Assembly (NCBI GenBank): GCA_008632985.1
Contig: QPGO01000006.1
Location: 248,001 to 312,000, forward strand
DNA: 64,000 nucleotides
Source: Psammoneis japonica
Taxonomy: Eukaryota
Reading direction: 5' to 3'
A model generated the notes under the pieces. It did not search any database. It saw only the letters and a program-made list of their open reading frames with translations, and had not been told where the DNA came from. Position 1 is the stretch's first letter, and each line of letters opens with the position of its first letter. Of the stretch, positions 1 through 57,481 are shown piece after piece. The translations under genes and the position numbers were made by a program.

Positions 1-741
1 ACGAGGAACAGAGGATGGCACAGGAACTGTCCATGTCCATGTCTTGAGCCTGTGTGAGATCTCCGAGGCTCAGTCGATGTGTGCAGGGGGGTGGAAGATG
101 AGGATTGCAGCGGTCGGTGGCTGCTTAGATGATGAAGAAAAGGGCGAACAAACTTGTCGTGCAGTGACATAATCAGAATGTAGGCTTTTTAGCCAGCATC
201 TTTATCTTTTTCTCCTCTTCATCTGCCGTTTGTGTCGTCATTTTCCTCCACCAATTGTGCACTGGATCAAAAGATCTATTCGCGACACTCTACCCTCCAG
301 TCCTGGGGGTTGCGAGAATTGTGCCATGACTCATGACCGCCATTCTGCATCGTGTCTCGCTCATGCGACACCTCGTAGCGGTAGTTATGGGTTGCCATTC
401 GGTCAACAACATGTGTTCGAGTAGGGCCCTAGTCAGAACCGCAGCGCCACTCGCTCTAGTAAACGACCTGTGCTATTGTGACAGAAGCACACTTATGACT
501 CATTCTAACGAGAATTTCGGCATTGTCGGAGACGGTTACCGTGCATAAAAATATGGTATGGACGAAAGGCGGACGACGATGAAGAGTTCAACTCTGTGGA
601 TTCGCATCTACAGTATCACTCAGAATCTTTTACATTCTTCTAACTTACTGTTTCGGATGCCGGCATATGGCATATGGATGTGTCTCACACAAAAGATATT
701 GCGAAAAACTGTGTGTACAGCAGATGGAATCCATGGGCGTG

Positions 742-1480
742 CTACCACTTTGTCACTCGAGTCTCTGCGGATTTGATGAGACGACACGACACGCATAGCA
801 TTCCGCATCGTGTGCCCCGCGCAGGTGAGAGACTTGGACGACGAAAAGAATGCAAATCACAATAGAATAGACCACTCGTAGTACATACCTTGTGGAAGTC
901 GATCTCGCAAATAGTACAGCTTCGCTCGCTTAATTTTCTTTTTACCTTTGTGTACAAAATTCTCCTCCAGCACCTTGAGAGACTTCAAGAGCGGCGAGTG
1001 CAGAGGTATTTTGCGTTCAATGGTTTCTCCAAACACAACGTCCCGCAGAATCACAGAAGACCCCAAGCCACGATTCACTCGTCCCAAGACAACACCACGA
1101 ATCTTTTCGATATCCTTTCCATTCACGCCGCCTGTAGCAACCATTTCAATCTCAATCGCATCACCCACCCGAAAGGGCACCTTGAGGACGGACGGATTCT
1201 TTTCTGTAGATTCGAGAACTGATTCTTGGTTGAGAGTTTCAAATAGTTTCGAAGCGCGTTTACGAGGCGACTTGAACTTGGGTGAGGGATATCGAGGGCG
1301 TTTCCCGTGATGAAAGTACGGCATGTCTCGAGGAGCGACACCGCCGGGAGGAGAAGTACTGGTTGAAGTCGTGCTACTCATACTAGCAGCCACGGTGTTC
1401 ACGGCACCGCCTGTATGACCATTCATGAGGGATCTCCATGGCCTTGTGATTGTTCCAATGGACAAGGTGGGACGCAACAT
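742..1480 (-). CDS. MRPL19: Organellar (probably mitochondrial) ribosomal protein bL19; 2 exons (1480-889, 764-742)
   Basis: FRVGDAIEI...RGVVLGRVNRGLGSSVILR...ERKIPLHSP...KRAKLYYLRD is the bL19 signature, preceded by a Ser/Thr/Arg-rich presequence. A GT..AG intron at 765-888 joins to the last exon ETRVTKW*. Confidence 0.85.
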
Positions 1481-1585
1481 GTCTACGATTCAGTTCTAAG
1501 GACTCCCTCTCACCCACTCTCTACCACAGTACGCTACGCGTGTCGCGATTGTTTTTGCGATGCGTGATGTATAGGGCCCTAGGTA

Positions 1586-4500
1586 TCTGCGTCGTGCGTG
1601 CTTCCTCGTCGTCTGACCCGTGGCCACCACGCACCGCTGACGTGACAGAGCATCATTTTTCAAAGCGCACTGTGAGAACAATTTTTCATGCAGAATTGCC
1701 AAGAAGATGGATGGGGAGGATGGAGGTCGCTGCTGTTTTCCATCGACTCAAAACTCCTGATCACTGCCTCCTTCTGTGAGCAGAAACTCTGTGCAAAACA
1801 CCAAAGCAATCAATGAAATGGAACAAGAAGGGGAGCTGATGGATCCTTTGAAGACACAAAAGCTGTCTGGAGGTGTTTGTCCTCAGTTGTTCAAGAAGAC
1901 AGATGAGCTTGTTTTTGTTGGATGGAGGAGCTGCACTGTCCAAACAACCACAAAAAACTCACACCCTCCAAAGCTGTCATGGGCAGCTTTTTAAATGTGC
2001 AGAAACACTGGCACCAGAGAGACAATGCGCGGCTTGACTTTGACACCAGCAACTTGAAATCAAGGGCAGGGTGCAGAAGCCAGCTCTTGTTGCTTTTGTC
2101 AAATTCACTCCAGAGAACCTTCTTGTTCAGCAGACAGCAGAGCGTGCAAGACAACATCACTTTGGGGGTGTGGGTCCTTGACAAATCAAGCTTGGCGATG
2201 AGGCGAGAGGCACTTGAAGGGTGAAGAGCTTGTCGTCAACCACAAAGCACGTCATTTGTCTGATCCCTGGCATTGTTGAAGAAGTTGTTGACCCAGATTC
2301 CCAAAATTTGCGCACACAATCACTGGAGTTTGTGGAGTGGAGAAAGAGGCATGCCCACACTCTGTCTTTGCAGCGGAGCCAACAATGCAGACAGCCTGCT
2401 CCTTGTCCTGCACACCAAGCGATGTGCAGCAAGAACAGGGTGTCTCCAAAAATGTGGTGATTCGCTGGTGCTTGACAATGCCTCAACTCATCTCCATTGA
2501 GAATCAAAATCTCTTGATGACTGGCTTTTTGATGAACTTGGCATTTTGCCTCATGGAGATGTGGCACGCACTGGCACAGCAGCTCAAGAGCTGGGGCCTT
2601 CATGGCTCACATTCAGTGTGGGGAGTGCACTGGCAAAACATGCTGCTGTGCAGCACTCATGGGCTCACTTGCCCACATGATCATGTTGCCATGCTGCATG
2701 TGTGCTCCACATTGCTGAGTCAGCCAAAGTGGGCGCTGGCGCTGGCAACAACAGACTCCAATTTTTGACATTGGTCAACTGGAGTGCAAGAAAACATCTG
2801 TCTGCTGGAGCTGCTGGTTTTTGCAAACAACCTTGTTGCCCAGGTGGTGGCAGCAGCAGCTGAAACACTGTGTGGTCTTTGGCAAATGCGGCAACAGCTG
2901 GGCTTCTGATGGAACAGTGTGCTGCATCACTGATGCTGATCCATTTCAAGGAACCAAAGTTCCACTCATGACTTGGCCTCACACCATCTGCCAAAGAACA
3001 CTCAACCTCATTGGAAGCTGGCTCAACACCCAAAAGCAAAAGAGTGATGAGAGCAGCCATGACATTGAGGCCCAAAGGTGCACCTGCTGATGCTTGGCAT
3101 GTTTCCAGAGAGCTTGTTTCAGCCACACACACGCAACAGCATGAGCAGCAGTCTTGGGAGCCACAAGCTTCCCCAGTGCCAATTGACTGCCAGTTGTTGA
3201 TGGATGACAAAGTTTGCTCTGACTTGCAGCTCTGGTGTCAAACACATCCCATCTTGGACAGGAGTGGAGTGGAGACAAAGGCTCCAGGTCACAAACAAAA
3301 AACAAAGCCAGCACAGCTGAAAAAGCCATTGGTTGCTTGGCTCTCAAACTGCTGGTCTGTTTTGAGTGTCATTTCACTCTGCTGTTTGCCACCAATTTCA
3401 GAGACAAAACCAGCACTTGATGTGGTTGCAGCCATCCTTTGTGCCCATGGCTTTCAACAAAGTCAATTGCACAAAGAGTTGTCCAACACATTGAAGAACA
3501 TTGTCAAGCAGAGAGCAACGTGGGGAAAAGAACCTGTTTGCAGCACAGACAAGCAAACTTCATTGACTTTGCAGGAAGCCAACAACAACTTGCACTTTGT
3601 TTTGCCAGCCCTCTCTCTTAAAACATGCACTGCAAGCTCTTTTCCATTGCAGCTTGGTCAGCCACACAAATTTGCAAAATGCCCTGGGTGTCTCTGGGCA
3701 TGGCCTTGTTGCCAAGAAAACACACCAAGAAGGGGCCGGAGTGGAAGTTGCTGACTTCCACAAAAAAAGCTTTTTTGTGTGGTGGACAACAAGTGTTGTG
3801 TGGGATTTTGCACAGATTCATTCCACATGATTCCCTGTGGACATGAGCTCAGAGCTTGCAGCCAGCATTGGCATTTGAGCAGATCAACCTGCCTCTCAAC
3901 CCACTTTGCCATGTGGCATGGTCTGGAGCTGCAGTTGCAGAGCTGAGTGGGTTGGGGGTGAAGCAGTCTGCTGGTTTTTGTGCAGCACCCATCTGCAAAT
4001 TTGTTGAGACAGTGCACAGCATGGCATTTGAAACAGTGCAAGCTGGTTGCTGAGTTGCTCAGCTGCCAGTGTGCAAACTTGGTTTTTCTTCAAAGTGGGT
4101 TTCTTGAATCAAAGTGAAATGAGTGGAGCCAATCCAGCGAATGTGGAAAGAGGAAAGATGCTTCTCAGATGCTGTCCAAGGAGGAGCCTCAACAATGGGT
4201 GTTTTTTCATCCTGCACAGGTGAGAAACTTTTGGACCAGCGCATGTTTCTGGGTCTTCTGCTGGGTCTCCAGACAATGATTTTAGGAGCAGGCACTCAGC
4301 AATGGCAGCCCCTGTCTCATTTTCAAGCAACACGTCTCTGTGGTTGTTTTCAATCAATGCCCCTTAGACAGCGTGGTTATCTGCTGGGCTGTTTCTCAGC
4401 TCAGACGCTCGCTGAGCTTGCCCATCATCTGTCATCATGCAGATTCTTGGCTGGCATTTGTCTCTGTTGTTTTGCAGGCTGCAGCCTTGTGCATGTCTCC

Positions 4501-5444
4501 TTCCTCCAAGCCTGCCAGTGTTTTCTAAAAGCCTTCTTGCTTTTTCCCCAAGGGTTGTTTTCCCAAACATGCTTGCCACAGCTGGGGTTGGGAGAGCAAC
4601 AAGGACTGTGTGCTTTTGAAAAAACAGCGCTCACAGTCAGGTGTCTTTCACCTGTCAATCTCCTCTTTGCAAGAAATCCAGGTGTTGCACCATGCTTTCT
4701 CTCCACCACAATTCTGCTTTTTGTTGTTGCCAAGCACCCATTTGCAGTTGGCCACTTCTCCATCCTTGTCAAATGTCAGTGCTTTTCCTGCTGCTCCCTC
4801 GCCAGCTTCTGAGCCAGACGCACATGTCCAGCCACCCTGCAAAGCTGCTGTGCCATGGGCAATCCTCTCACAGCCAAGCACGCTGTTGCAACATGAGCTC
4901 AGCAGTGGATTGTTCATCAGCAATGGAGAAACAATGGGCCAATGTTTGGCGCTGTGTGACAGTTCTGTTGGATGAGGTGTCAGCAACACTCTGCTTGCAC
5001 AGCACCAGAACACTCAAACTGCGTGGTGCCAGTGGACTGTTCTCATCCAACCCAGGCCCCAGAGCCTTGAGACTTGATCCTCTGCTGGCAATCAGTTTGT
5101 TGGACTTGACTTGCTTGTGTGACACATCTTGAAACAGCAGCAGCAAAGAAAGCTGCAGTCAATCACTGAAAGGCATTGCATTGGTTGCTTTCACTTCGAG
5201 TGTGAACAGGTCCGTCTTCTTGTGCAGACGCATCCAAGAGCATTCGATGGACACAAAAATTCACCTGGAACAGAGTCAGGACAACAAGCGTGTGCACCAC
5301 AACCCCACAAGAGGGAACGTGATCAAGCAAAAATTGCCAACATTGGCAAAGAAGAGAGAAGAAGAGAACAAAGTCAACTTGGATGAGTCTGGCTGTTGCA
5401 GATGCCGCCACAAGAATGGTGTTTTGGAAGTGGCACATGCAATC
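1586..5444. other. Hypermutated tract A: TpA-erased and CpG-depleted decayed sequence
   Basis: Manual scan finds only 6 TA dinucleotides in about 3.86 kb (1992, 3619, 4283, 4365, 4378, 4526). CG is sparse and TG/CA abundant. ORFs in all six frames are Tyr-free and Cys/His-rich. Confidence 0.92.
4251..4837 (-). pseudogene. Hypermutated internal fragment of the frustulin-PhoX gene (paralogue of about 8280-8840, intron included)
   Basis: GGWTCASGSEAGEG..DGEVANCKWVLG..NCGGEKAWCNTWISCKE matches the intact GGWIYVSNSEASKG..DGEVTDYKWLLG..NCGGGKTWYNTWISCEE. NETGAAIAECLLLKS matches NETGTAITEYLLLKP. Confidence 0.9.
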
Positions 5445-5513
5445 TATGTGGCAACTCTGTGAATTATTTACAGGAGCAGCTAATCAGTCAGCATTGATGC
5501 ACGCAGTTGCTGT

Positions 5514-6905
5514 TTATAGAGATTGGAAGAAATGTTGCCACGACGGGTCCGCCAACACCTTGGCTGCATCAACGTTGCAGAATTTGCTGCCTTGGCTAGC
5601 CTTGGCAAATTCCAACTTGTGCTGAAGACATAATCCATCATGAGATTGATCAGGAAATAAATGGCCTTCCAAGAAGAGAGATCGGTTGAGCAGTGAGGCT
5701 TCCTCCTCTACAGTCAGACAAACGAGATCGGTTGTTGCATTCAACGGTTGGTTCCGCAATCGATTCATGACAGCAAAGGATGCCTGACGTCTCGTAAGTG
5801 TTTGATTCCTTAACAAACCATGGTTGCGAGCGGCTACTGCAAGCATGTCATAGTCTAGAATCATCGACAGGTTGGGCCTTTCTTGGTGGTGATTGTTCTG
5901 CTTCTTTAGAAGTTCCTCCATGTCTGGGAAGATCTGCAAAGCAAAGTTTGTCGTCAATGGGCCCTCTTGATGCATGTTGAAGATTATAACATCATCGAAA
6001 TGTTGACCAAACAGATTCTTCAAGTACTGTGCTGGGTGTAGATCCCTGTACTCGGCATTCCATTGGTAGCTTCCAGGTATGTCATGCCTGTTGTTAGGCT
6101 CACGGAGCTGGTCGCTGAGTTCTTGATAGAAATCTGAAAATGTTTTCATGACTTCTCCACCTTCGCCAGGCCATTTGAGATATTTCGTTCTTCGAATCAA
6201 TGGCTTGTATTTCTCGTTGTGACTACTGAGTAACCAATCCCAATAACGCCGGTACACAATCACCACTTGGACTCGAAAGAGCCTGGACAAGGTATCGGAT
6301 AAAAGTTGCAAATTAGAATCTGTGGCTTTGATTCGAGCAAATGCCTCATCGGACAGAAAAACATCTCGTCTTTTTTTTGAAAGATCTTTCAAGGTCGATT
6401 CAAGCTTTTTCCAGGCTCCCGTGGCATTGCAGGGAGATGATTCGTGTTTGTCAAGGCATGTCACGAGACTGCGAGTGTCGATTGCAGCATAGACCAGCTG
6501 TTCTTCTTGGCAAAGGCATTCGCGATAGAACCTTCCAGCGTATTCGTGAGTAGTGTTTTGATGAAGAGTCTCCATGAGGGATGTCAACTCGCATTGAATT
6601 GTGGAGCTTGCCGTTTTGTGAGGCCCAATGTGCAATGTTAGCCTTGGCTTGGTGTACGAACTCGAGTACGATGTATTCTGCGCAGTGCGCAGAGCTGTCG
6701 ACCTGACACTTTTCTTCTTGATTGTCCGTGTCGCTTTATTGAAACTGTGATTCGATTTAACTTCATATTCAAAAGCTGACTTTGTAAGCTTCTTCTCTTG
6801 TTGTTTCTCGTCATGCCAAACTAGAAGTACATGGTTCCAAAGAAGAATCAATAAGAGTGCAACCGCTGCGGAAACACAACAGAGCCTAGCAAACAATTTC
6901 CTCAT
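5514..6905 (-). CDS. Type II membrane P-loop/sulfotransferase-like protein
   Basis: N-terminal TM helix, LHIGPHKTASSTIQ (5'-PSB-like loop), VFLSDEAF and VVIVYRRYWDWLLS. Long uninterrupted ORF; start taken at MRKLFARL. Confidence 0.7.
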   Translation of the reverse strand: MRKLFARLCCVSAAVALLLILLWNHVLLVWHDEKQQEKKLTKSAFEYEVKSNHSFNKATRTIKKKSVRSTALRTAQNTSYSSSYTKPRLTLHIGPHKTASSTIQCELTSLMETLHQNTTHEYAGRFYRECLCQEEQLVYAAIDTRSLVTCLDKHESSPCNATGAWKKLESTLKDLSKKRRDVFLSDEAFARIKATDSNLQLLSDTLSRLFRVQVVIVYRRYWDWLLSSHNEKYKPLIRRTKYLKWPGEGGEVMKTFSDFYQELSDQLREPNNRHDIPGSYQWNAEYRDLHPAQYLKNLFGQHFDDVIIFNMHQEGPLTTNFALQIFPDMEELLKKQNNHHQERPNLSMILDYDMLAVAARNHGLLRNQTLTRRQASFAVMNRLRNQPLNATTDLVCLTVEEEASLLNRSLFLEGHLFPDQSHDGLCLQHKLEFAKASQGSKFCNVDAAKVLADPSWQHFFQSL

Positions 6906-7199
6906 TTTCAATTCAGACTGCAATGAGTTGAGGCGGTCACCGCAAAAATTATCTGTTGTCCCTCTCAAGTTGGGAGTCGGGAGGTGCTATCGCTACATGT
7001 ATTACATACAGCTGAGCTGAAAATGATGCCGATCGATTTGTCAAAATTTCATCTCACACGCGACCCGCCCGCCCGAACGCTCACCCCGCCTGGTCAGGGG
7101 TGACTCCTCACTCATCCTCTGTATCCGGTGGTGCTATCCCTCTATCGGTACATTAGATAAAGATATAAGGGCCCTACAGTACATATTGCGATAAGTCGG

Positions 7200-7290
7200 G
7201 CCCTACTACATGCTACCGTGTAGTCTCTATCTCTCTAGCTAAGCCCTACACTACATACTACCGTGTAGTCTCTATCTCTAGTAGCTAAGC
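7200..7290 (+). repeat. Short tandem duplication (about 45 bp x2)
   Basis: CCCTAC..TACATRCTACCGTGTAGTCTCTATCTCT..TAGCTAAG occurs twice. Confidence 0.8.
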
Positions 7291-7773
7291 TCTAGAGCTA
7301 CAGTCGTGCTCTGGGAGTAGAGGTGAGAGGGTTGTATGAGGATACTCCATTGTCTTTCGTGCAACACTGTACAATATGCAGCATCATGGAATTTGAAACA
7401 GTACGAATTAATCGCCGAGTTATTCAGCTACCAGCATGTTGACTTGACCTTTCTTCATGTTAGATTTCTTGCGTCAAAGCTGGTGACGTGACACCTCTGT
7501 CTCTCTCTCTCCAGGGCATGTGATTTTTCTAGGTGTTGCGGAAACAAGTGGAACCAATCCATTGCATTGACAACGGTGGCTTGATTCATCTAGCTCATTC
7601 GCTCGAAGGACAGGTCATTGTTAAGTTTGAGTTTCTCTATAACGAATGCTGAAAATCTACAATCTGAAAGTTGTCAGAAGGGCATGCTCTCTTGTGAGCA
7701 TAATGTGCCGCGTAAGGTACCTGACGAGTGCTCGGGCGCTGCCCTTCGTCATCGCGGCCTGGCATTATCAGCT

Positions 7774-10700
7774 TCATTGTTTGGCAAATGGCTTGTCTGT
7801 GTGATACTTGATATCCAGTCTCTGGCCACCAAACGGGTGTCCGTCTTTTCTTGTGATTTCGAATATTAGACCCGGGGCTTGAAACGACAGGTACATTCGC
7901 ATATTATCCGGTGAAAAGGCTAAACCTGATGTCTCATCCTCCAAAGCTCCAGACGACTCGAGGACCGTGTAGTAGTTGCCCTGCTTATCACGGCCGTGAA
8001 CACCACATATCTTTCCACCTTCTTCACAAAAGTACAAGATGTCGTGTGCGTCTCCATCTCCCAGGATTCTAGCGACCTGATCAGGCCCATTATCAAACGC
8101 ACCAGATCGCGTCGAGCTCCTTCTATAGGTTTGCTTGTCAAGGTCGAGAATAAACAAGTGCCGTCTCTTTTTACAAGTGAAGTATAACATACCGTCACGC
8201 ATATCGATGCCTTCACAATGGTTGTAATTGGCACTAGCATTCTCCCTGGCAACATTGATCCTGTCTGTCCACGAAAAGGTTCCTTCCGTTGGGTCCCTAG
8301 ACGATGGTTTGAGGAGCAGGTACTCGGTAATGGCAGTCCCTGTCTCGTTTTTGTGCAACAAGTCTCTGTAGTCGTTTTTAACCAATGCTTCTCGGACGGC
8401 GCGGTTGTCTGGACTGTATCTCAGCACAGGTCCATCGAATTTATCTGTCGTCACAAAGATTTTTGGTTGGCGTTTATTCCTATTGTCGTAGGCTGCAGCC
8501 TCGTACATATCACCTTCCTCTAAGCCAATCAGTGTTTTCCGAGCCTTGTTTTTGTCCCAAGGGTCGACTTCCCAAATGTGCCCACCTGTAGTTGGGGTTG
8601 AGAGGATAATGAGGACATGGTGCTTCTGAAACAATACTAACAGCTAGGGCTCTTTCACTTACCTTCGACCTCTTCACAAGAAATCCAGGTGTTGTACCAC
8701 GTTTTCCCTCCTCCGCAATTCCGCTTTGTGTCGCCAAGTAGCCATTTGTAATCGGTCACTTCTCCATCCTTGTTGAATACCAACGCTCCTACACCACCTC
8801 CTTTGCTAGCTTCTGAATTCGATACGTATATCCATCCACCGGTCTTCTCATCCTTGAAGATTGCGGCGCCATCCGGATCCTCGTGCATTTTTCGTTTTGA
8901 TAAAGTACCGTCAGCTAAGCGTACAGGTTTCTTCCATTGCGCAAGCACGCGAGATTGCAGTCCGGTTGAAAGCAACAAACCATTTTCTACCTGCGTTGCA
9001 TCACCAGGAACATAGGTAACCTTGCTACAATAGCTCTTTCCGATAGAATCACCTGACCCACCGGGTTCACACCCTGGAATGGGGGATTGTCTGGAATTTC
9101 GTGGTACACACACGGTTCCACGTCTACAATTTCTGCTGTTGTTCTTACAGTCACCCTGACAAGCGTCGCAGGGAGAAGACCGACTGCAACTCTTTAATAC
9201 CAAAACATTTTCCTTTGGAGGTGCTAGGAATGGCCTGTAGCAGTAATTCTTTTTCAGTATCCCTTTGCCTTCGCAACCTAACACTTGATTTCCGGTTCGT
9301 TGCATGCATAGAAGCCCAGGCTGGCAGTCGTTTTGGGACTCACACTCTCCTTCACACATGCCCAAAGGAAACGCTGATCGTGGTTGATGATTCATTGCTT
9401 TGAGCACATGCGTACCTTGTGGAGGCTCGTAACAGTATCCAACTCCTGGAATTCCAGCACCTTTGCAATTTGGAACTGGCTCGGTCCCCTTTCGACGATA
9501 ACATGACAGACCTAAATCGCAATCTGCGTCCGTGCTGCACTCGCCACGACATGCGGCGAGCGGAAACGATGAACTAGACTGTTGTCCACCTATCTTTGAG
9601 ACGAGAACTCCCGCGGGAGGTTTGTAACAGTACTGTACACCCTTCTTTCCCAGCGTTTTACACCCGGGCACGCGCTCCAGGCCTCGACGCTTGTAGCACG
9701 AGAGGCCGATGCGGCAATCCTTGTCTGATGAACATGGGCCTCTACAAATAGGAAATGGAGCAGTGCCAACTTCTGCTAGCTCGTCGAATTTTGGATTTGT
9801 AGTCTCGACGGGAGTAACGGGCAAGGCCTTTTTAGGGTAGCAATATTTTCGTCCTGCGACACCGCGACCCTTGCAGAAGGGATCATCCTTTCGACCTTTC
9901 TTTGTGAGGCACGACAATCCCTTCAAACAATCCTCATCCGAGACACATTCACCGTGGCATAGTCTCAAATTGCCTTTCTTTCCCCCGGGTGGCGACGTAA
10001 TTACAAAATGTCCAGATGGAGGCACATAACAGTAGTCTTTCCCGTGTACGCCTCTCCCGGAACATCCCGGTAGTTTCTCGGTTCCGACGAGGCGTTCTGA
10101 ACAGGCCAAACCCAAATCGCAGTGACGATCGGATGTGCAGTCTCCTTGACAGTTTGTTAAAAGAGTCTTTCCGCTTCGGATAACTGAAACAAGTTCAGCG
10201 GGTGGTGGAACGTGGCAGTAGCTTTCGTCACTGATTCCTTCACCAGAACAACCGGGTATTTCTGCCTTTTTCTTGCGGTGGTAGCACACCAGCCCTGAAG
10301 CACAATCTAAGCTACTTGTGCACGATCCTTCACACTTTCCCAGGGGATAAGCTGCTTTGGGGCTTCCTTTCACTCCTTTTACAACAAGTTGTCCAGGCTT
10401 TGGGAGCGTACAATAGTCATCGCCTGGTATTCCCCGGCCTTTACAGTGCGGAACAGCTTCTGTTGCATTCCTTTGATAACAAACTAGCCCTAGCTGACAC
10501 TGCTTGTCCCCATCGCAATCGCCGCTGCATAGCTCGAGAGGAAAGACAGACATTGGCTCACCGCCGTTTCCAGCATCAATCAGTTGTCCATCAAAATGTT
10601 TTGGCTTCTTCTGCGGCCGTGGTTCTGAACAGTAGGTTTCACCTACATCGATTTTTCCCTTTTGACAATTTGTGACCTCTCCTCTGGTTCGCTTGTAACA

Positions 10701-10856
10701 AGAAAAGCCTATTTGACAGTCATCGAAGCGTTTGCATCCCGTCTCACACCGCCCGAGAAGACGAGAAGGCCCGTCGACATCACCGCGACCAAGAGTCAAT
10801 ATTTGTGTTGCACATAAAAGAGCGAGGGTAATATTGAGCCGTCGGGGAGGCGTCAT
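7774..10856 (-). CDS. Secreted protein with 9 frustulin-like Cys-rich repeats fused to a PhoX-family (DUF839) alkaline phosphatase; intron 8586-8662
   Basis: Signal peptide followed by CxGxC..C..GL.C..R.....PGC.G.G..G..YC repeats. PhoX motifs: PDGAA, YVSNSE, NCGGGKTWYNTWISCEE, EGID, PDQV, ETSGLAFSPD. A phase-1 GT..AG intron joins the two ORFs in frame. Confidence 0.85.
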
Positions 10857-12676
10857 TGTTACTACACGTGTTTGGGCGAACTGGTAAGAGTAAAGATAGA
10901 TAGAGAAACGCACATCGCTCGGAGCTCAGACGTTGCGACGAACGACCAAAGTTTGCATTTTTGGTTCACTGCAATGGTTCGCATGACCAGGTTAGACGGG
11001 ACATTTCTTATACAGTATGTGATGTGTACCGCCATGTTGTACTTCATCACACAAATTGATATATTTGGACATAAGCCCCTATTCTGTCATTTAACAGTCC
11101 CGCGACGCATCGCGAACATGTGTGATCGTAAAAAAATACAGTAATTTAAAAATGAGGAGTCGTACAAACCCCAACGAATAGAGTCGTAGCCCTAGCCGAG
11201 GCCACTCTTGCGCAAAACCCTCTCTCTAGCTAGTGGGGGGTGGGGGCCCTATCTAAAGCGTACTGCAAGATCTTTGAGCCATGCGCCGAGGTATGGCCGG
11301 AAGAGTCATTTCTTTTCTGACTCAGGCCCGAGAATGTCCTCTGCGCGGGGGATTGGGTTCATGGACTCAGCCTCACATGATACCTACTGTACTGTAATGT
11401 GAGTTGGATTCTCGAAATCTCATTACTCGTATAATAGCTTCAATCATTAGTGTTTTCTACATGGGAGGTGGGAGAGTTGCTCCACTTTTCCCCCAACTGA
11501 TAGACTACTCAGATACACATAGTACATAGAGTAGTTTTAGTCACCATAAAGCCATACTACGAACACGGAAACTAAGCCGTACTATGACGATTATCAAAAA
11601 ATCGGATACTGTTTGAAGTCTTTAGTGCAGTTTTGAGCGTTTCGCTGGATGCTGAATAAAGTTGGTGGCAATCTTGCCAAAGTTGTCCTCACTAGAGTCT
11701 GACGTATTTGCGGTATGACAAAGAGACGATACAAACTCTTGAGTGGCGCCTTGGTCCCCTAAATGAGCACTGTTAAGAAAGGAAACTCTTTGTGCCTGTC
11801 GTCTTGAATCAATTCGAGTGCCCACTGCACTGCTGCCTGCTCTGCATGCTCATGAAGGACAGAAAGAAAGGTATTCTAGTGCCGGCGTTGCCATCGGTTG
11901 CCCTCCTTGACGATGCAGTGACATTGCCTGGAACCCATTATGATTGTCTTGGTGACAAAGTGTTGTTTGACCCTGCTCTTCTTGTCGACAGCGTCACCAA
12001 TCTCGTCATGCCAAAGATTTTCTAGATCGGGTTGTCCTTCGCCAACAGAGGGAAGCTCCTGACATGCTTTTTCCAGCTTCCAATGCTCAATTAAAGCCAT
12101 CACAAACTCAAGATTGCCATGCGTTTGGCAATGAAATCGTCAGGCTGCACATCTTTCGACAAGACTCGTAGCGACGTGTTTTTTCGTCATCACAGGACAC
12201 TTGTTCAAACATATTGGAAAAAAAGTTTCAATCAGCGTTCCGTGGATCCAATATTCGGCACAAATCTGCAAGATCCACGCAGCCGTCTCTCGAGATTTCT
12301 GGTTTGGACGCGACATTTTGTCGAGAAGAGCACTGATTTTTGTGTCGAGCGTGGAGAATAAGAATACAAGGGTACAAAATAAGAAAGGAAGACGGTGGGG
12401 TGATCGAGGATTGAGTAGTAGGGTGCCAATGCACAGCTCGCAATAATAAGTTATTTCTAAAAATTGTGTATACTTACGAGGGTTATGATAAGTTCACTTT
12501 GGGGCGTTGGGCAGTGAATGCGGAGGTTGGGCAAACCGCAGTGCTGATAGTAGGCTCCAATCCACTCTCGCAACACTGAGGTTGGTCGTTGGTCCTATCC
12601 TAGACTGTAGTAGTGGTACAATGTTCAATTTTCTAACTTACACGCTCCAAAGATTGCAGTGTATACTTCCCAAATT

Positions 12677-14703: not shown

Positions 14704-15929
14704 GGCGATCCAGGAAACTTCGAAGTTTCGAAAAATGTGCTAGAAGATTCCTAATCCCTATCGACATATCTCTACGTGGACCTCGTGTAGGATAGACAAA
14801 AGCTTCGAACATTCTGAGGTTTCTGTCTCTATTGCCCTTAATATTGCCCCAGTGAAAGTTCGAAGTGTTCGAAGTTGTTCGAAGTGTTCGAATACTTCGA
14901 ACACTTCGAAGTACTTCGAACATTTTCGAAGCTTTATATAATATCAAGTATCATATATAATTCATACTTTCTGATTTGTCAGCTTCCTCCGTATAACGTG
15001 GTAATGCTTCTACGAGTACGATATTTTTTGTGTGCGAACGCGACCCTGACAGCGCTCGCACAAGCTCGGCACAAAACCATGCCGCCATGACCGAAATGCC
15101 GCCGCTTCCGACGCGACAACATGTTGACACTACTGTGAGATGCCCCTGACTTGTCAATCAACCCACGAGGGATTGTGTGCCGTGTTGTAATGACATCGTT
15201 CGACCCGTTTTTGCATTGACATCGTTGATGGAAGCTCGTCATTTTTCGTTTGTACGGGGTTTCACGTGGTTTGTCTCGACGACAATGGTGGAGCGGTTCT
15301 ACAGACGACAAAATTGGATTTGAGGTGCTTCATCGTGGCATTTTTGACCCAAGTGGTCGACAGAGGACCCATGTATTGCTTGTAAGCGTCGAAATGAGTG
15401 GTTTTGGGCAATCGGCTTCCGAATTCCTGCCACCATGGTCGTGAAGCACGGCGTTGCACCATGACGTGATCAAAATCAAGCCAATACAGTATTGATAATG
15501 TACAGTGCCGAATAAATAATACGGGATAGATGATGTCATTTTTTTTCGTCCTTTATGTGATTGGGCAATACTGTTCCATTGTACAGTAGGTACGTACTAT
15601 TCGAACACGTCGAACTTGTTCGAACAAGTTCGAACTTTGTTCGAATAAGTTCGAAGTGGGCAAGAGGGCAATAGTAATTGTTCGAACAATTAGGCACTTA
15701 GAATCAAAAGGATAAGAGGGCAATATGTTACCGACAAATATTCGAACACTTCGAACAATATTCGAAATTTTCGAACAACTTCGAACACAACAAATATTTG
15801 TTCGAACTTTTATCTATTGCCCCTTGTTTAACTTGTACCAACCAGGTACGAGCTCTGCGCGTAGAATATTGTACAGAAATGTCATGGAATATAGAATCTT
15901 TCGAAGCCTTTGAAGTTTCCTGGATCGCC
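14704..15929. mobile_element. Non-autonomous DNA transposon (MITE), PIF/Harbinger-like
   Basis: TIRs of about 30 bp (GGCGATCCAGGAAACTTC.../...GAAGTTTCCTGGATCGCC), flanked by a 3-bp CAG duplication (14701-14703 and 15930-15932). Subterminal TTCGAA arrays at about 14800-14930 and 15600-15810. No transposase ORF. Confidence 0.8.
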
Positions 15930-15935
15930 CAGCTG

Positions 15936-18083
15936 ATGAAGGGTCGAATAATCATCGTTATCCTCTTGACTGTCACTGTAGATCGGTTTTGGAGAAATCT
16001 GTCGAGGGACAGTCTTTCGAAGAAAACTGCAAAGGCAGTCACTCAACAGCAACGTGCGCCAACTGCCAGTCAATTCGATGTCCATTGGCCACTCTTTATC
16101 CTTCACGTGGGGCCTGCCCAAGCGGGTGCCACCTCGATTCAGCAATTTGCAGCAAAATGCCCAGATCTCCTCAAGCAAAACGGGGTTCATTATCTTGGAG
16201 GCAACAACGATGCAATCGACGGTGTGATCTCTGCGTGCCACAGGACAAGTGCTCAGGACAAGGACGAAAACAAGTGCAAACATGCGTGGGACGAGTTTGG
16301 GACGCTGTTGGAAAATCATCGCGAGCTTAACCACACGGTATTTCTTTCTCAAGAGAGCTTTTCTGACTTTCCTAACGAAGAGCTCGAGGAGACTCATCTT
16401 TACGACTTTTTGCTTCCGCAACTGGAGAAGTGGAGGGTGCAAGTTGTATTCACGTATCGACGCCGTTATGAAATCTTATGGAGTCTATATCACCAACTGT
16501 TCGACCCTAGGCAACCATCTCAACAAACATGGCCTGCCAAGGGCAAAGCGGCCGTTCCGTCCTTTCCCGAGTTTGTAGAACAGCAAGAAAAACAAGAAAC
16601 CTTCAAGCACCCGGAAGCTATTGTTTCTCGCTTGCGGCATCATTTTGGAAACCAAAGTGTCGCCGTGTTGAATTATCACGGGGGTGATTTGTTGCAGCGC
16701 TTCTTTTGCGGTTATATGCCACAAGCTCGCATTGTTTGTCGGTTCCTACTCGATGTAAACCTGACGACGCAAGAGAGCAATCCGTCAAAATCTACATCTA
16801 GAAGCCTTTGGCACGACATGATTGCTGTCGAAGCCTACAGACGAGGGCTTCTGTTCGGTAAACGGTTTTCCAGGAAAGATATTGCTGATTCAATCGAAAA
16901 GCACTCGGCTGTGGTAAAGAAAGCGGATCTCAAGGAGTATCCTGTGGTGCGCCTGTCTGCGAACCAGACGGAAGCTCTTCTTTTGCATTCCCACGCTGTG
17001 GAAAAAACCCTCGTCCCCGACTTTTATTCAAAGGATGATCTCGATGTTGGGTTTCAGCAGTTTTTAGATGAAGGACGGCTGGTGTCTGTGGATGCCAACG
17101 CTGTCTTGAGAGATCCTCAATGGAAGAATTTCTTTTCAACACTCGTATATCCGAATCCGCAGATCACATGGCTCATGTCATTCCCGAACTCTGGAACTTC
17201 CTATACGATGACGATGGTATCAGGATCTAGCAATCGGGCTTTTGCAACGAACAGTTGTGATGAAGTAACGCCGCCTGGAGAAGAATGCTTGTCGATTTAT
17301 CCTGAACGACCAGAAGGACCGTTTTGGGTGGGCAACAGGTCGCAAGACATTGAACCCCGTCGACCTTTGCCAGACAAATACGTGATAACTAAAACACATT
17401 GTGGTTTCCGGTGTTTGGCTTGCGGTCCCGATAGGTACGTCGGAACACCAGCCCCCTTTCTCAAACAATGTGCGAGTGGACATGCTCGTGTGCCACGGAG
17501 CGAGGCTTCCCACGGTCTGCGTCGCATCGATGTGGACTATCCCCCTGAACGTGTAGCCAAGGCGATACACTTGATTCGAAATCCCTTTCACAACATCATT
17601 TCGCGTTATCATATGGAACGTCGTAATCGAGACAAAAGGAATGAGACGGAATGGTTAGAAAGACATGGCAATGACGCAGCCGGGTTTCAGGCATTCTGTC
17701 GAGATTTGGATGGGGACTACAAGGATCAGGATGAAGAATTCTTTGGCAAGGATAAGATTCCCAAGGCACCATGTCATGGAGAATTTTACAAATGGACGCA
17801 GTGGCATAATTTCGTGCACGAAGGACTGGAATTGATCGGGTCGCAAGACGAAGTTCCCGTTCTCACGTTGTACTACGAAGACTACGCGAAAAAATTGAAT
17901 GCGACTGTGGCTAGCATTCTTGGCTTTTTGGAGCTAGAACTCCAAGGAGAGATAAGAGAGTTCTCGCCGCGATCGGACTATGATGTCTACTTCACCAAGG
18001 AGCAAGAAAGGGACGTGCAAGATTTGATCAAGAGTGTTGCAAGTGAGAAGACATGGACACAAGTCAAGCACTACTTTGAGTAG
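15936..18083 (+). CDS. Protein with two sulfotransferase-like domains
   Basis: N-terminal hydrophobic anchor. Domain 1 (LHVGPAQAGATSIQ...VFLSQESF...VDANAVLRDPQWKNFF) is paralogous to 5514-6905. Domain 2 has WLMSFPNSGTSY...ITKTH...IHLIRNPF...LYYEDY. Confidence 0.75.
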   Translation: MKGRIIIVILLTVTVDRFWRNLSRDSLSKKTAKAVTQQQRAPTASQFDVHWPLFILHVGPAQAGATSIQQFAAKCPDLLKQNGVHYLGGNNDAIDGVISACHRTSAQDKDENKCKHAWDEFGTLLENHRELNHTVFLSQESFSDFPNEELEETHLYDFLLPQLEKWRVQVVFTYRRRYEILWSLYHQLFDPRQPSQQTWPAKGKAAVPSFPEFVEQQEKQETFKHPEAIVSRLRHHFGNQSVAVLNYHGGDLLQRFFCGYMPQARIVCRFLLDVNLTTQESNPSKSTSRSLWHDMIAVEAYRRGLLFGKRFSRKDIADSIEKHSAVVKKADLKEYPVVRLSANQTEALLLHSHAVEKTLVPDFYSKDDLDVGFQQFLDEGRLVSVDANAVLRDPQWKNFFSTLVYPNPQITWLMSFPNSGTSYTMTMVSGSSNRAFATNSCDEVTPPGEECLSIYPERPEGPFWVGNRSQDIEPRRPLPDKYVITKTHCGFRCLACGPDRYVGTPAPFLKQCASGHARVPRSEASHGLRRIDVDYPPERVAKAIHLIRNPFHNIISRYHMERRNRDKRNETEWLERHGNDAAGFQAFCRDLDGDYKDQDEEFFGKDKIPKAPCHGEFYKWTQWHNFVHEGLELIGSQDEVPVLTLYYEDYAKKLNATVASILGFLELELQGEIREFSPRSDYDVYFTKEQERDVQDLIKSVASEKTWTQVKHYFE

Positions 18084-51377: not shown

Positions 51378-53412
51378 TCATCTTTCCATTTTCTCTAGTT
51401 CTTCCAAATGAATCTGATACCTATCCGCATTGGACATTACGTAATGTGCCACTGTTCGCTTATTGGTTTCGTCAGGAGGACTGTCACCTTCCTCTAGTAC
51501 GCCCTCAAATTTTTCCTCGCTTCGACAAGACACATTACAAGCACGAGCCAACAATCCCGTGGCGGCGTCTTCCCATGGCAGATAGTCAAGGTCCGCCATT
51601 TTGGATACGGCACATGTGACCACGTCTCGTGACAGCGCGTATCCGCATCCGCTCGCATAGGGTGGAAAACTGCGTTGTGGATACAAACGCCTAGAGGTAA
51701 ACCATGAATAGGACGTGTCACGTTTGACAAGTCGCGCCTTTTCCGACATGCATTTGCCCCAATATCAGGTTTGTGTTTGGAAAGAATGCGAGAAATCTCT
51801 TGCACACCAATGTACGAATCGTCGTCCGTTTTGAAAACATAATCATAGTCATCGTCGTCGTGCTGCAATATGGTATCGACTGCTTGGAAAAAGATTTGAG
51901 TCTTGAATGTCAGCAAGAGATAGTCTTCCATCATGTCGATCCATAGCAAGTCACCGTATTCATAAAACTCATCCTTGATTTCCTCCCAGAGACCACTCAC
52001 GATAAACAACACAACATGGTGGTCTGTGGTGGCTGCCCATGTGTTGCGAATCGAGTGTCGGGTATTGGGTGTCGCTGCATTCGATAAGACTCCAAAGATA
52101 ATTTTCAAATTATCTGAATTATGTTGTTGTTTGGTTTCTCTTTATCCAAGTGGGATACCGATAGGTGAATGTCTTGGAGGAAACAACTGCCCGACCTTGT
52201 CCATTTCGATAGCTTCATGTGGCTCTGCAGTCATGTGCTTTTCAACAGTCATGGCTTCCCTGATGAGAGACTGGACAAACAAGGAATGGGGATGATCCGG
52301 AAAGACAATCGACTGAGCCACGGCCAAGTTTTGCAACTTGCGCTCCAAATCCTTCTTGGAATAATACTTATTGAGGTTGGATATCGCCTTTGTGGGTCCT
52401 TGACAAAGTCGTCATGCTTGATGAGATCGAAAATCCTCCATGTTTAGGCTCGATGGAAAGGGACCAAAGGAGTCTTGGTAGAACGAGTTGTCGTCCACAA
52501 TGACGGGAATGCATCCTGCACGAATGGCATACAAGAGCGGATTTGAATGCGGTGGGTCACCGGAAAGAAACAAGCAAAACTTGGACGACAGCAAGCGCCG
52601 TTGCCATTCTTTGGGTGGCAAGTTGTTTTCCAAACTTATTGGTTCGAGACGGATCTTTCTGTCCAGCTCGGGTAAAGACGGCAGAGTGAAGGGTTCGTCC
52701 GGAATACTCGTGTTTCTGTGATAAAACAAAACGTACTTGGAGTTGTTGTACTTCTCCAGAGTTGGTTCTTGTATATCAAAGGGCGCGTCCATACCTAGAC
52801 CTGTAGAAAAGCCCTTGGTTATTGGTCTCATATCGCCCAATAGGCTGGGGTCAAATAGCTCGCTACAGTCACATTGGCGAGAAGTTTGTAATGCCTCGCA
52901 AGCGCAGGAACGTAGCTTGCGTACTTTGAATTGAAAAAATACGATCCATGCGAAAGCAACACATGATTGCTTCCATGCGTCTTTTGAAACAGTTGGTGAT
53001 GTCGTAGAGTGTCAAAGGACTTGTCGTACGAAGTGCACGTTTCGTCCTGACAGTCATAGGCAAACAATTCAGAAATCAGAGTCGGAACAATGTAGAGCTC
53101 CGCCTCGTTGGGATCTCGTGTGCGGAGCGGATGCTTTTCGAGCGCCTCCATCATGATGCGCTCCGCCTCGGCGTTTCTTAGAATATGATCCAAGTGAGAA
53201 CAGGTTCGTGAGAGTTCAGCGTCTCTGCGGAGTCTCTTGAGGGAAATCGTGAGCTCGTGGGAAATTTCGTATTCATCGTAAATGTAAAAGCGCGTGTTGA
53301 CGTTCTTGAGATCATCAATTGATATAGCTCCATAACAGTAAATATGGCATAGAATGAGCAACGCTGTCGTTAAAAAGAAGAGTCTGTGCCGCCGTCGTTG
53401 AAACATCGTCAT
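51378..53412 (-). CDS. Probable exostosin (GT47) plus beta-1,3-galactosyltransferase (GT31) fusion glycosyltransferase, with several apparent frameshifts
   Basis: TM anchor. GT47 motifs: FYIYD, RTRDPNEAELYIVP, SKFCLFLSGD..YAIRAGCIPVIV. GT31 motifs: RHSIRNTW, EDY..LTFKT, FKTDDDSYI, PPYASGCGYALS, EDAATG. Confidence 0.65.
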
Positions 53413-53614
53413 GGTCGATCCTGTTTTGTGCTCCTCTAACTTATGTGTTTTGGCCTTTTGTGCTTTTAACTGTCCGTCCTTCAGCCGGCGATGGACTAAT
53501 TTGTATTGCCCTTTGTGGCGACAGGCGCGCGCCCGCCCTTGCCAAAATTCCAAAAAAACGATGCGAATCATCCAAAACATCACCCATCCACATCACACAA
53601 CAGACGTATCAGTA

Positions 53615-54723: not shown

Positions 54724-54804
54724 GCCCTCAAGGTTTGAACTGAATTCTTGTTTACCCTAGTGCTTTGATTACTCCCCTCAAGGTTTGAACTGAATTCTTG
54801 TTTA
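54724..54804 (+). repeat. Direct repeat (31 bp x2, 50-bp period)
   Basis: CCCCTCAAGGTTTGAACTGAATTCTTGTTTA occurs twice. Confidence 0.85.
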
Positions 54805-56904: not shown

Positions 56905-57481
56905 CCTGACTTTTATCGTTTTACTTTTTTGTGCGCTTCGAAACCGAAATGTGATGACAGTCGGCTTTGCAGGAATATCACCGATTCTGGTTATGTTGAA
57001 GGAAGACCGTTGCCATTCTCGATTTTGTTTATCTATAGCCCTTTAAAACCATAGTATGGAGAGATAATTGTCTTACGAATGTGTCGCAGTGAGTCTTCGG
57101 CTGAATTTACTTATTGTAATGTCCACATTGAATTTTCCCCTCTGGAAACAAGGCATTTTAACATTTATGCCTTGCAAACACTACTTAACCGCAATAGTTG
57201 CAATAGCTTATCAATGTCATTTTTGCAAAACAATGTTTAACGAAAGGCTACGGGCCTCTTAACCGTACGGTGGAAAGGTACGACCCATTGCCCATTACAT
57301 TCTCGTTGATCTGTGTTGGTTGCGCGATGACATGCCCGCCCGGGGTGGACTGACAAAAAATGTCAAAATGAAAAAAGAGAATCCGCATCACAAGTGTTTT
57401 GTACCATGGCGACTTGCACTGACAATGCAGCTGATCCACTCCCGCAGAGGAGTGGTGTTGACATTTTTTTCACGTGGTCTA

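Follow-up and report, generated by a model that had tools for sequence, protein, structure and literature searches.

What could remove nearly every TA dinucleotide, together with most CG, from several kilobases of DNA and leave the adjoining genes intact? This question is raised by an interval near the left end of the window, i.e. the whole stretch of 64,000 nt analysed here. Loss of CG is well known, but our literature search found no described process that strips TA likewise, and full-text literature outside subscription journals yielded no account of tracts devoid of both TpA and CpG, be it in diatoms or in other organisms. To our knowledge, targeted point mutation of silent or duplicated DNA as known so far (RIP, CpG decay) always relies on cytosine to thymine chemistry.

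Composition and borders of the tracts

The first tract, T1 (1585–5444), occupies the entire interval separating two intact genes. The initial annotation had reported six TA in 1586–5444, and our exact count for 1585–5444 is also six (observed/expected, o/e, 0.02; positions 1992, 3619, 4283, 4365, 4378 and 4526), compared to ∼168 expected from the background frequency of the window (Poisson P ∼3e-63). CG was correctly described as sparse and TG/CA as dominant: T1 contains 49 CG (o/e 0.21), and the o/e values of TG and CA are 1.77 and 1.81. For the rest of the window (5446–57480) we obtained 0.61 for TA, 0.96 for CG and 1.19/1.18 for TG/CA. The share of pyrimidine-purine steps is 23.8% in the tract and 24.2% outside, which is what a conversion of TA and CG into TG/CA predicts. 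A second, larger tract, T2 (57481–64000, truncated by the end of the window), had not been remarked on before. It contains 10 TA (o/e 0.02) and 41 CG (0.11), with TG/CA at 1.88/1.90. The residual TA level is the same in T1 and T2 and their dinucleotide profiles are nearly identical; the words CAGC/GCTG (3.3–3.6-fold) and TGCA (2.4–3.3-fold) are enriched in both. The TpA/ApT ratio is 0.035 in T1 and 0.030 in T2, compared to 0.66 in the remaining window, at a G+C content of the tracts of 49%.

The borders of the tracts are sharp, as had been claimed for T1. The number of TA per 100 bp drops from 7–8 to 0 inside a single 100-bp bin, both at 1585 and at ∼57300, TA is back at 5445 on the right edge of T1, and the tracts end ∼30–100 bp from the flanking genes. 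At two edges the TA-free zone extends 150–400 bp past the CG-poor zone. In T1 this edge zone (1585–1750) adjoins the 5′ end of the left flanking gene and has no TA, while the 100-bp bins at 1600 and 1700 still hold 7 and 2 CG; its counterpart in T2 (57300–57700) has 6, 3, 4 and 3 CG per 100 bp. With the TA-free zone being wider than the CG-poor zone, the two erasures are not exactly co-extensive and the two processes are not simply one.

Both genes next to T1 are intact. On the left lies a gene with a ribosomal protein L19 domain (857–1480, reverse strand; Pfam Ribosomal_L19, E 3e-17), whose 124-nt intron (765–888) has 6 TA and 11 CG. The spliced joint 764/889 (CT..AC ends) is present in a contig of run X2, a sign of RNA-like behaviour. 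On the right, an ORF on the reverse strand (5514–6968) encodes a protein of 484 aa, with its stop codon 70 bp from the tract edge. The protein belongs to a family found in diatoms and has 27 relatives, including Skeletonema proteins, and TA occurs 16, 17 and 14 times at the three codon phases of the gene. An HMM of this family found nothing in the tracts beyond the gene's own end. Run X2 contigs over the flanking genes cover 889–1556, 5477–7012 and 7276–8622, their ends not being transcript ends; T1 is represented in them by two 43-nt partial matches only, which does not count as evidence of silence.

Apart from the gene copies described below, the tracts have little recognizable content. Among 50 stop-to-stop ORFs of at least 90 aa in both tracts (17 of them in T1) there was no Pfam family below E 0.01, the seven weak matches (E 0.016–0.09) being at chance level. 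No Rfam family matched in the tracts, and tandem repeats are limited to two short ones at 2514–2548 (17-nt unit, T1) and 59018–59070. Since the tracts have no terminal direct or inverted repeats either, we rejected mobile-element as well as structural explanations.

A Logan contig from the reads of run X1 (13,302 nt, depth 60) covers 1433–12000 and spans both edges of T1. It differs from the window by two letters and one gap over this range, and one of the two differences is a CG of the window at 2311 that is TG in the contig. The longest contig of this run has 315 kb; its platform is unrecorded and it is possibly the sample behind the assembly. A polishing artefact is unlikely as the source of the T1 profile, and so is a base-calling artefact.

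Decayed gene copies and the direction of change

Three pieces of the tracts are copies of neighbouring genes, 72–85% identical to them and with many indels. T1 contains a dead partial copy of a PhoX-like gene (4255–4836, reverse strand), which aligns to 8283–8816 with 71.7% identity over 562 columns (BLASTN, E 8e-77), or with 76% over 530 ungapped columns under standard scoring. Homology continues through the short intron of the parent, and blastp against both exons gives 41–59% identity, with Tyr of the parent replaced by Cys in the translations. A second piece (4013–4114, reverse strand) is a copy of non-coding DNA downstream of the same gene (7377–7479; 72.5% identity, 102 columns), in which all five TA have become TG and none of four CG is kept; ∼790 bp of the parent are absent between both pieces. 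The intact parent, together with its downstream DNA, lies at 7357–10913 on the reverse strand and consists of the ORFs 8655–10913 and 7774–8634 with a short intron between them. Its Pfam PhoX matches are collinear and sub-threshold (E 0.022 and 0.0013), and TA and CG are normal by codon phase. In T2 we found a dead partial copy (63604–63999, forward strand) of a violaxanthin de-epoxidase-like (VDE-like) gene, which is intact 9.7 kb upstream (53411–54604, forward strand; Pfam VDE, E 1.3e-16). The copy matches 53903–54110 with 75.5% identity (208 columns) and 54307–54387 with 84.8% (79 columns); a transition-tolerant alignment scores 233, compared to at most 36 in 20 shuffles, and blastp gives E 2e-6. 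Thus both tracts hold duplicates of genes located 4–10 kb off, in unchanged orientation.

Judging from these alignments, the tracts are mutated host DNA and not foreign, since the homology extends into the intron and the downstream non-coding DNA of the parent. Here the initial annotation, which had preferred mutated host sequence over foreign DNA with a natively low TA content, agrees with the three paralogue alignments. Of 10.4 kb of tract in total, ∼0.9 kb could be assigned to a parent; the remaining ∼9 kb have no homologue in the window, and purine/pyrimidine-coded local alignments of the seven remaining segments to both strands of 5445–57300 were no better than reversed controls. A copy with intron and downstream DNA also implies a duplicate made at the DNA level. 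ADAR-type hyper-editing via cDNA was rejected on this ground and for want of strand clustering of TG and CA in the tracts (runs test z −0.98 and −0.94).

The direction of change was read from the 919 ungapped columns of the three alignments with the intact copies as reference; as these have evolved as well, single changes are not strictly polarised. None of the 38 TA in the intact copies is kept in the tracts and 32 have become CA or TG (the chance of keeping 0 of 33 TA is P ∼1e-15). Four of 44 CG are kept and 35 read TG or CA, compared to 467 of 721 (65%) kept for all other dinucleotides. Relative to the intact copies, the alignments show that CG has gone to TG/CA in the tracts and that TA has done so at least as completely, which is the direction originally proposed. 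Changes of A to G are most frequent after T (TAN; 28/65, 43%), less so before a pyrimidine without a preceding T (VAY; 31/148, 21%) and rare elsewhere (VAR; 16/184, 9%), with P=5e-9 for TAN versus VAR and P=0.002 for VAY versus VAR. The alignments thus also show that A followed by a pyrimidine changes to G more frequently. The top single context is TAC (14/24), and within TA the preference for a 3′ pyrimidine is weak (TAY versus TAR, P=0.08). C to T changes affect 36 of 79 NCG sites and 27 of 295 cytosines elsewhere. Both kinds of transition are about equally common: A→G plus T→C versus C→T plus G→A amount to 51 versus 45 in the T1 alignment and to 36 versus 35 in the T2 alignment. Finally, 8 of 116 sites show a double flip between CA and TG, whereas 0.8 would be expected if both changes were independent. 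This excess suggests that the process is persistent or recurrent, in line with the equal residual TA level and nearly identical dinucleotide profile of T1 and T2.

Local confinement and comparison with CpG decay

Outside the tracts, 16 non-ORF segments (13,444 bp) have a TA o/e of 0.78 and a CG o/e of 0.93, and across the codon boundaries of eight intact ORFs the values are 0.54 and 0.97. Elsewhere in the window, both dinucleotides are hence retained in introns, between genes and at synonymous sites, so that the process is local; its confinement to the tract, suspected from the first, is borne out.

Methylation-driven CpG decay is known from vertebrate and plant repeats, and CpG-targeted, RIP-like decay also from basidiomycete transposons. 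The tracts resemble such DNA in the conversion of CG to TG/CA, the excess of TG/CA, a CG o/e of 0.1–0.2 and the restriction to putatively silent DNA, but in them TA is erased as well, which CpG decay does not bring about. Indeed, when we simulated CpG decay alone, TA remained at 0.85 (CA/TG 1.39, G+C 42%), compared to 0.02 observed. We therefore rejected it as the sole cause, and the earlier assertion that 5mC decay is insufficient for the loss of TA stands. Adding a 60-fold rule for TA yielded 0.06 for TA, 0.17 for CG and 1.90 for CA/TG. With a further rule for A before a pyrimidine, AT falls and GC rises toward the observed values; however, G+C overshoots (55% versus 49% observed). Under this model, a TA-specific loss of ∼60 times background is required for the observed profile. 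The indirect TpA deficit that CpG decay can cause (Duret and Galtier 2000, discussed in PMC3829696) is small, and the simulation led us to reject the idea that the lack of TA is such a ‘mathematical artefact’. Among 80 metagenome loci (772,934 bp, fetched with a desaturase gene), zero windows combined a TA o/e <0.15 with a CG o/e <0.4; as only eight of them (∼56 kb, L001–L008) are diatom-like, this has little bearing on diatoms.

Possible mechanisms and consequences

We consider it probable that silent host DNA, in part decayed duplicates, has been driven to a compositional end-state by domain-restricted, context-specific transitions. T1 and T2 would be putatively silent, non-coding host DNA in a diatom chromosome and at least partly decayed local duplicates of neighbouring genes. 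Their CG would have been lost by ordinary deamination of presumably methylated CpG in presumably silenced chromatin, and their TA by a distinct A:T→G:C activity of much greater strength, at least ∼60 times the background transition rate. This activity would persist or recur, e.g. in each sexual cycle, whereas a single old burst would not fit. Its targeting might depend on the chromatin state of the domain or on the duplicated origin of the DNA. A chromatin-state trigger seems as likely as a homology trigger, because the copies are now 72–85% identical and yet the double flips suggest a process that continued or recurred.

As to the chemistry, our leading but tentative guess, which we would not call likely, is adenine deamination in DNA by a TadA/ADAT-like enzyme of the deaminase superfamily with the motif T-A-Y, the resulting hypoxanthine being read as G. 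We know of no natural adenine deaminase acting on DNA, and a Pfam scan of the 26 ORFs of at least 200 aa in the window revealed no deaminase. Bacterial TadA recognizes the anticodon-loop context TAC (UAC), with a preference for the 3′ C. The strict 5′ U/T neighbour for A→G is common to the tracts and these systems, and, according to PMC11156358 and PMC11087585, A-to-I mRNA editing in the sexual stage of filamentous fungi (Tad2/Tad3) likewise prefers U at −1. TAC is the context changed most often in the tracts. However, TadA/ADAT and the fungal editing act on RNA, site by site and in hairpin loops, whereas the tracts are DNA in which, over kilobases, each TA is changed and neither strand is spared. 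Of the TadA-like candidate named in the initial annotation, the 5′ T rule thus fits, while the preference for a 3′ pyrimidine is weak. More doubtful still is the full proposition that diatoms possess a chromatin- or repeat-targeted system of DNA adenine editing at T-A-Y, which together with CpG methylation permanently rewrites silenced or duplicated DNA through A:T→G:C and C:G→T:A transitions.

A rather unlikely alternative is one or several homology-triggered, RIP-like bursts, e.g. premeiotic, by a DNMT4/RID-like enzyme, with the present state as a scar. RIP in Neurospora and other ascomycetes depends on RID/DIM-2 and hits both copies. All its changes are C:G→T:A, mainly at CpA, so that TpA is created and the product is rich in TpA and in A+T. 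Transitions concentrated on duplicated DNA, killed gene copies and sharp borders with intact genes adjoining are reminiscent of it, and so are the nearby, equally oriented duplicates in both tracts; the CA/TG double flips would be expected from a late burst as well. Against this, A:T→G:C changes are as strong as C→T, the TpA/ApT ratio is 0.03 and not high, G+C is not lowered and the intact partner copies are unmutated. Moreover, TA is at 0.02 in both tracts although the copies have diverged so far and carry many indels, ∼9 kb of tract have no detectable partner in the window, and a DNA methyltransferase offers no route from A to G. The term ‘RIP-like’ in the initial annotation is apt only loosely, for the duplicated genes within the tracts, and misses the intact state of their partners. 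Diatom DNMT4 enzymes, whose function is unknown, are possibly related to fungal RID according to PMC9998398.

It is unlikely that a repair bias accounts for the tracts with no new enzyme involved, i.e. that mismatch repair is missing from silent methylated chromatin or that T:G mismatches from 5mC deamination trigger error-prone, polymerase-eta-type patches there, with A:T→G:C changes near methylated CpG as the outcome in both cases. The losses of TA and CG do occupy common domains, the TA-free margin of 150–400 bp would fit patches spreading from methylated CpGs, and G:T replication errors that escape repair typically leave T→C changes after a purine. But the WA motif of polymerase eta, the second candidate put forward initially, fails: A changes to G in 20 of 123 cases after A, no more than after G (15/98), compared to 28 of 65 after T. 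A rate ratio of at least 60 for one dinucleotide also seems above the context effects known from loss of repair. As A after A is no hot spot, the likeness to phase 2 of antibody somatic hypermutation (AID, mismatch repair, polymerase eta at WA), which combines C deamination with nearby A:T→G:C changes in a bounded region, is incomplete; besides, hypermutation of this type is a matter of vertebrate B cells rather than of germ cells. In enterobacteria, very-short-patch repair and the scarcity of CTAG share with the tracts a methylation-tied repair, T→C changes and the erasure of a TA-containing word, but they concern one pentanucleotide genome-wide and not every TA in a bounded tract.

We regard as very unlikely that a TET/JBP-like dioxygenase oxidises the 5-methyl group both of 5mC at CpG and of T at TpA, two symmetric methyl-pyrimidine steps, and that the 5-hydroxymethyl- or 5-formyluracil formed then pairs wrongly with G and causes T→C. 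A single enzyme would account for the erasure of both self-complementary pyrimidine-purine steps; in dinoflagellates, 5-hydroxymethyluracil occurs preferentially at TpA, and 5-formyluracil is a source of T→C changes. However, the mutagenic effect of 5-hydroxymethyluracil is weak, we know of no such base in diatoms, and the effect of A before a pyrimidine is left unexplained. Slightly less credible again is a neutral bias that would turn TA and CG into TG/CA quickly throughout the genome, with selection preserving them outside functionless DNA. While pseudogenes, i.e. unconstrained DNA, within tracts that stop just short of the flanking genes agree with this, the non-ORF DNA outside the tracts (13.4 kb) and the L19 intron keep their TA and CG, as do the eight ORFs, where TA persists even if synonymously removable. 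At a ∼60-fold loss, thousands of sites under weak constraint would need protection by selection.

Modified bases that were mis-called, or foreign DNA acquired from a virus or an organism natively low in TA and CG, are highly improbable. The platform of run X1 is indeed unrecorded and its reads may be identical to the read set of the assembly, but a k-mer contig of this length and depth requires accurate reads, and symmetric mis-calls at palindromic steps should give strand-conflicting calls and not clean TG/CA. Foreign DNA is contradicted by the host paralogues with intron and downstream DNA, by the 50 tract ORFs without TE or viral domain and by the single contig bridging both edges of T1. 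Least of all do we believe in a functional element, e.g. a spacer or a non-coding RNA, that is under selection to avoid TA and CG: the erasure is extremely complete and its profile common to two separate tracts, but what they contain are decayed, indel-bearing genes, Rfam families and repeat structure are missing, and we know of no element requiring 4–6 kb free of TA.

If every TpA were indeed removed by A:T→G:C transitions in the germ line, at a rate comparable to that of CpG decay or above it, this would amount to a mutational force of a new kind. Behind it one would expect an enzyme not yet described that acts on DNA, perhaps an adenine base editor of natural origin, and the silent-chromatin machinery of diatoms, including the DNMT4 enzymes, would gain a possible role. 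Such a genome-defence or pseudogenisation system would have a new chemistry, and its footprint of neither TA nor CG could be used for genome-wide mapping. The footprint is simple to scan for, which makes the question directly testable in any diatom assembly. The annotation of diatom genomes would be affected too, as DNA devoid of TA cannot contain TAA or TAG stops and thereby gives rise to long false ORFs. A T2 ORF of 346 aa (60017–61054) exceeds 298 of 300 Markov simulations in length; its two matches among 1.84 billion representatives are both tandem-repeat junk.

Two tracts nearly free of TA and CG

Within the tract at 1585–5444 we counted exactly six TA dinucleotides (at 1992, 3619, 4283, 4365, 4378 and 4526; observed/expected ratio, o/e, 0.02), where about 168 would be predicted from the TA density elsewhere in the window (Poisson P ~3e-63). 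CG is reduced to 49 occurrences (o/e 0.21) and TG and CA are raised nearly twofold (o/e 1.77 and 1.81); between this tract and a second one (5446–57480) the values are 0.61 for TA, 0.96 for CG and 1.19/1.18 for TG/CA. From the dinucleotide counts, pyrimidine-purine steps of all classes make up 23.8% inside and 24.2% outside the first tract, as expected if transitions turned TA and CG into TG and CA. At the borders, TA falls from 7–8 per 100 bp to zero inside one 100-bp bin at 1585 and is back at 5445. These counts bear out the initial annotation, which had described a stretch of ~3.86 kb with TA nearly gone, sparse CG, dominant TG/CA and a sharp switch; this tract was on its list, but a larger one with the same signature was absent from it. 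The second tract (57481 to the window end, which truncates it) holds 10 TA (o/e 0.02) and 41 CG (o/e 0.11) in 6.5 kb, and together the two cover 16% of the window. Their dinucleotide profiles are near-identical (AT 0.68 and 0.78, GC 1.34 and 1.35, AA/TT about 1.2–1.3) and the same words are enriched in both (CAGC/GCTG 3.3–3.6-fold, TGCA 2.4–3.3-fold); a direct comparison found no sequence similarity between them. At two edges (1585–1750 and 57300–57700) TA is already absent while CG is still there, thus the two erasures do not have exactly the same extent. The footprint is real, very strong and replicated, and it comes from a domain-restricted mutational process.

A base-calling artefact, foreseen at the outset as a possible objection, is unlikely as the source of the tract. 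The stretch is present in two public sequencing runs of one sample, and a Logan contig rebuilt from the reads of one of them (13,302 nt, word depth 60, compared with positions 1–12000) spans 1433–12000 with two letter differences and one gap, bridging both edges of the first tract, although this run is possibly the one behind the assembly (platform unrecorded) and its support perhaps not independent. Accurate reads are needed to build a contig of this length and depth, in a run with contigs of up to 315 kb. Also, by reasoning, symmetric modified sites that were mis-called would make the strands disagree and not yield clean TG or CA. At 2311 in the first tract, the window has CG and the read-based contig TG at full depth, a CpG-to-TpG difference between the two. 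At 466–912 the same run has two contig versions of similar depth (49–56 each), one equal to the window and the other with 17 letter differences and 24 gap letters over 581–912; these are probably two diverged alleles of a diploid.

Decayed gene copies and the changes they record

The first tract carries a dead copy of part of a PhoX-like gene (4255–4812 against 8283–8816; 71.7% identity over 562 columns, E 8e-77), whose intact parent lies nearby on the minus strand (ORFs 7774–8634 and 8655–10913, with sub-threshold, collinear PhoX matches). Homology continues across the short intron of the parent, and a further piece (4013–4114 against 7377–7479, 72.5% identity) copies non-coding DNA downstream of it; about 790 bp of parental DNA is absent between the two pieces. 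It therefore arose by local duplication at the DNA level and is neither a retro-copy nor foreign DNA. In translation, Tyr codons of the parent appear as Cys, and as Tyr cannot be encoded without TA, the copy is dead. The end of the second tract (63604–63999) is a decayed copy of a VDE-like gene situated 9.7 kb upstream (53411–54604, plus strand), with 75.5% and 84.8% identity in two blocks, an alignment score of 233 (at most 36 in 20 shuffles) and a blastp E of 2e-6. Since both tracts carry copies of neighbouring host genes, they are mutated host sequence, as initially proposed, and not foreign DNA with natively low TA.

For the other ~9 kb of tract we could recognise no parent: alignment of it, coded as purine/pyrimidine, with the rest of the window found no homology, and a Pfam search of 50 tract ORFs gave no match below E 0.01. 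We found no terminal repeats and no Rfam family in the tracts, and the only tandem repeats are two short ones. The longest ORF of the second tract is a stop-free frame of 346 aa (60017–61054, plus strand); 298 of 300 Markov simulations gave only shorter ones. It matches no Pfam family, and a search of 1.84 billion representatives gave two junk repeats and no other relatives. The frame may be the remnant of an ancient one that has stayed open, since TAA and TAG cannot arise there.

With the intact copies standing in for the ancestor and alignments scored in the standard way, we could polarise about 0.9 kb of tract (919 ungapped columns). None of 38 parental TA was kept (32 became CA or TG) and only 4 of 44 CG (35 became TG or CA), compared with 467 of 721 (65%) for all other dinucleotides; P is ~1e-15 for 0/33 TA kept and 8e-13 for ≤4/40 CG kept. 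The suggested A:T to G:C change at TpA beside CpG decay is thus what the copies display. With both strands pooled, A-to-G changes affect 28 of 65 adenines after T, 31 of 148 before a pyrimidine but not after T, and 16 of 184 otherwise (after T versus the rest, P=5e-9; before pyrimidine versus before purine, P=0.002). The effect of a following pyrimidine explains the low AT and high GC of the tracts. The top context is TAC (14/24), but within TA sites TAY versus TAR gives P=0.08 only. C-to-T changes occur at 36 of 79 cytosines before G and 27 of 295 elsewhere. TG and CA show no strand clustering in the tracts (runs test z ~ -1), and hence no sign of processive single-strand editing.

Restriction, strength and possible origin of the TA loss

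The erasing process is local. In 16 segments without long ORFs outside the tracts (13,444 bp) the o/e is 0.78 for TA and 0.93 for CG; the L19 intron (124 nt), whose ends are marked by a spliced contig, holds 6 TA and 11 CG; and at the codon boundaries of eight intact ORFs (four of them flanking or parental to the tracts), where both could be removed by synonymous change, the values are 0.54 and 0.97. A genome-wide mutation bias held back by selection outside functionless DNA is therefore very unlikely.

Simulations were started from ordinary window sequence; with CpG decay as the only process (15-fold) they gave TA 0.85, CA/TG 1.39 and 42% G+C. Adding a 60-fold TA rule gave TA 0.06, CG 0.17, CA/TG 1.90 and 51% G+C, and a 2.6-fold A-before-pyrimidine rule moved AT to 0.86 and GC to 1.20, the fit being qualitative, as G+C overshoots (55%). 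Under this model, TA loss must proceed at at least ~60 times the background transition rate, above the CpG effect. As the first simulation leaves TA at 0.85, neither CpG decay alone nor the TpA 'mathematical artefact' of such decay put forward by Duret and Galtier, treated in a passage of PMC3829696, is the cause, in agreement with the early remark that 5mC deamination does not remove TpA. The transversion divergence of the copies from their parents (5.6%, 31/557 columns, and 10%, 42/402) implies that much time has elapsed, yet TA stands at 0.02 in both tracts; this is at odds with one ancient burst and fits erasure that continues or recurs (e.g. at each sexual cycle). CA/TG double changes, at 8 of 116 sites versus 0.8 expected under independent transitions, are the trace of passage via TA or CG, e.g. 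CpA to TA to TG.

We propose that the tracts would be silenced and methylated, with CG loss as the usual outcome, and that a second activity may remove TA. Our leading, though tentative, guess is that a TadA/ADAT-like enzyme with a deaminase fold deaminates adenine in DNA. Such enzymes need U before the target A, and the anticodon-loop context of bacterial TadA is UAC, matching the top context TAC. Fungal Tad2/Tad3 mRNA editing, as described in parts of PMC11156358 and PMC11087585, favours U at -1. The TadA-like candidate named initially agrees with the preference for a preceding T. Homology-triggered, RIP-like bursts on duplicated DNA are rather improbable. Diatoms do have DNMT4 enzymes, of unknown function, which may be related to RID according to a section of PMC9998398, and as in RIP or methylation-driven decay, transitions rewrite silent or duplicated DNA within sharp borders; to this extent the label 'RIP-like' was loosely apt. 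However, the chemistry differs: the changes are not C-to-T alone and the product is not TpA-rich (TpA/ApT 0.03), both at odds with the definition of RIP. Mutation of both copies, a further hallmark of RIP, is not seen where a partner is present, the intact partners being untouched, and most of the tract has no partner in the window. Slightly less probable still is mismatch repair that is error-prone or absent in silent chromatin, for which the rate ratio seems too high and the WA motif fails: adenines after A change to G no more often (20/123) than those after G (15/98), which also speaks against the polymerase-eta hypermutation first considered. A TET/JBP-like enzyme that oxidises thymine at TpA would place TpA and 5mCpG in one class, both being symmetric steps with a 5-methylpyrimidine, but we regard this as quite improbable. 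The tracts do not conform to ADAR-type editing, and methylation-driven CpG decay matches the CG half of the footprint only. In the full-text literature (subscription journals outside coverage) we found no description of tracts without both TpA and CpG, in line with the initial view that no such dual signature had been described. We class the tracts with targeted hypermutation or decay of silent DNA, as a variant whose TA half we did not find described; new enzymology behind the TA loss is a possibility.

Genomic setting

The window is typical nuclear DNA of a diatom and densely packed with genes, with Pfam matches to ribosomal L19, fatty-acid desaturase, sulfotransferase, Utp12, ubiquitin E1, galactosyltransferase, the violaxanthin de-epoxidase (VDE) domain and carbonic anhydrase. 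Among named relatives, those from pennate diatoms match the desaturase best (53–55% identity; no relative above 58%), and the gene to the right of the first tract (5514–6968, minus strand) has relatives in Skeletonema. Intergenic arrays of TTCGAA-containing repeats with 9–10-nt and 19–21-nt units (14858–14931 and 15600–15788), which we take to resemble stacked heat-shock-element half-sites, lie directly upstream of the sulfotransferase-domain ORF 15798–18083. Translation of the PhoX-like parent (8655–10913, minus strand) shows in its N-terminal part many copies of a Cys-rich module of ~60 residues without a Pfam match. Downstream of the two parental genes there are two-copy tandem repeats of 45 and 50 nt (7205–7302 and 54725–54825).
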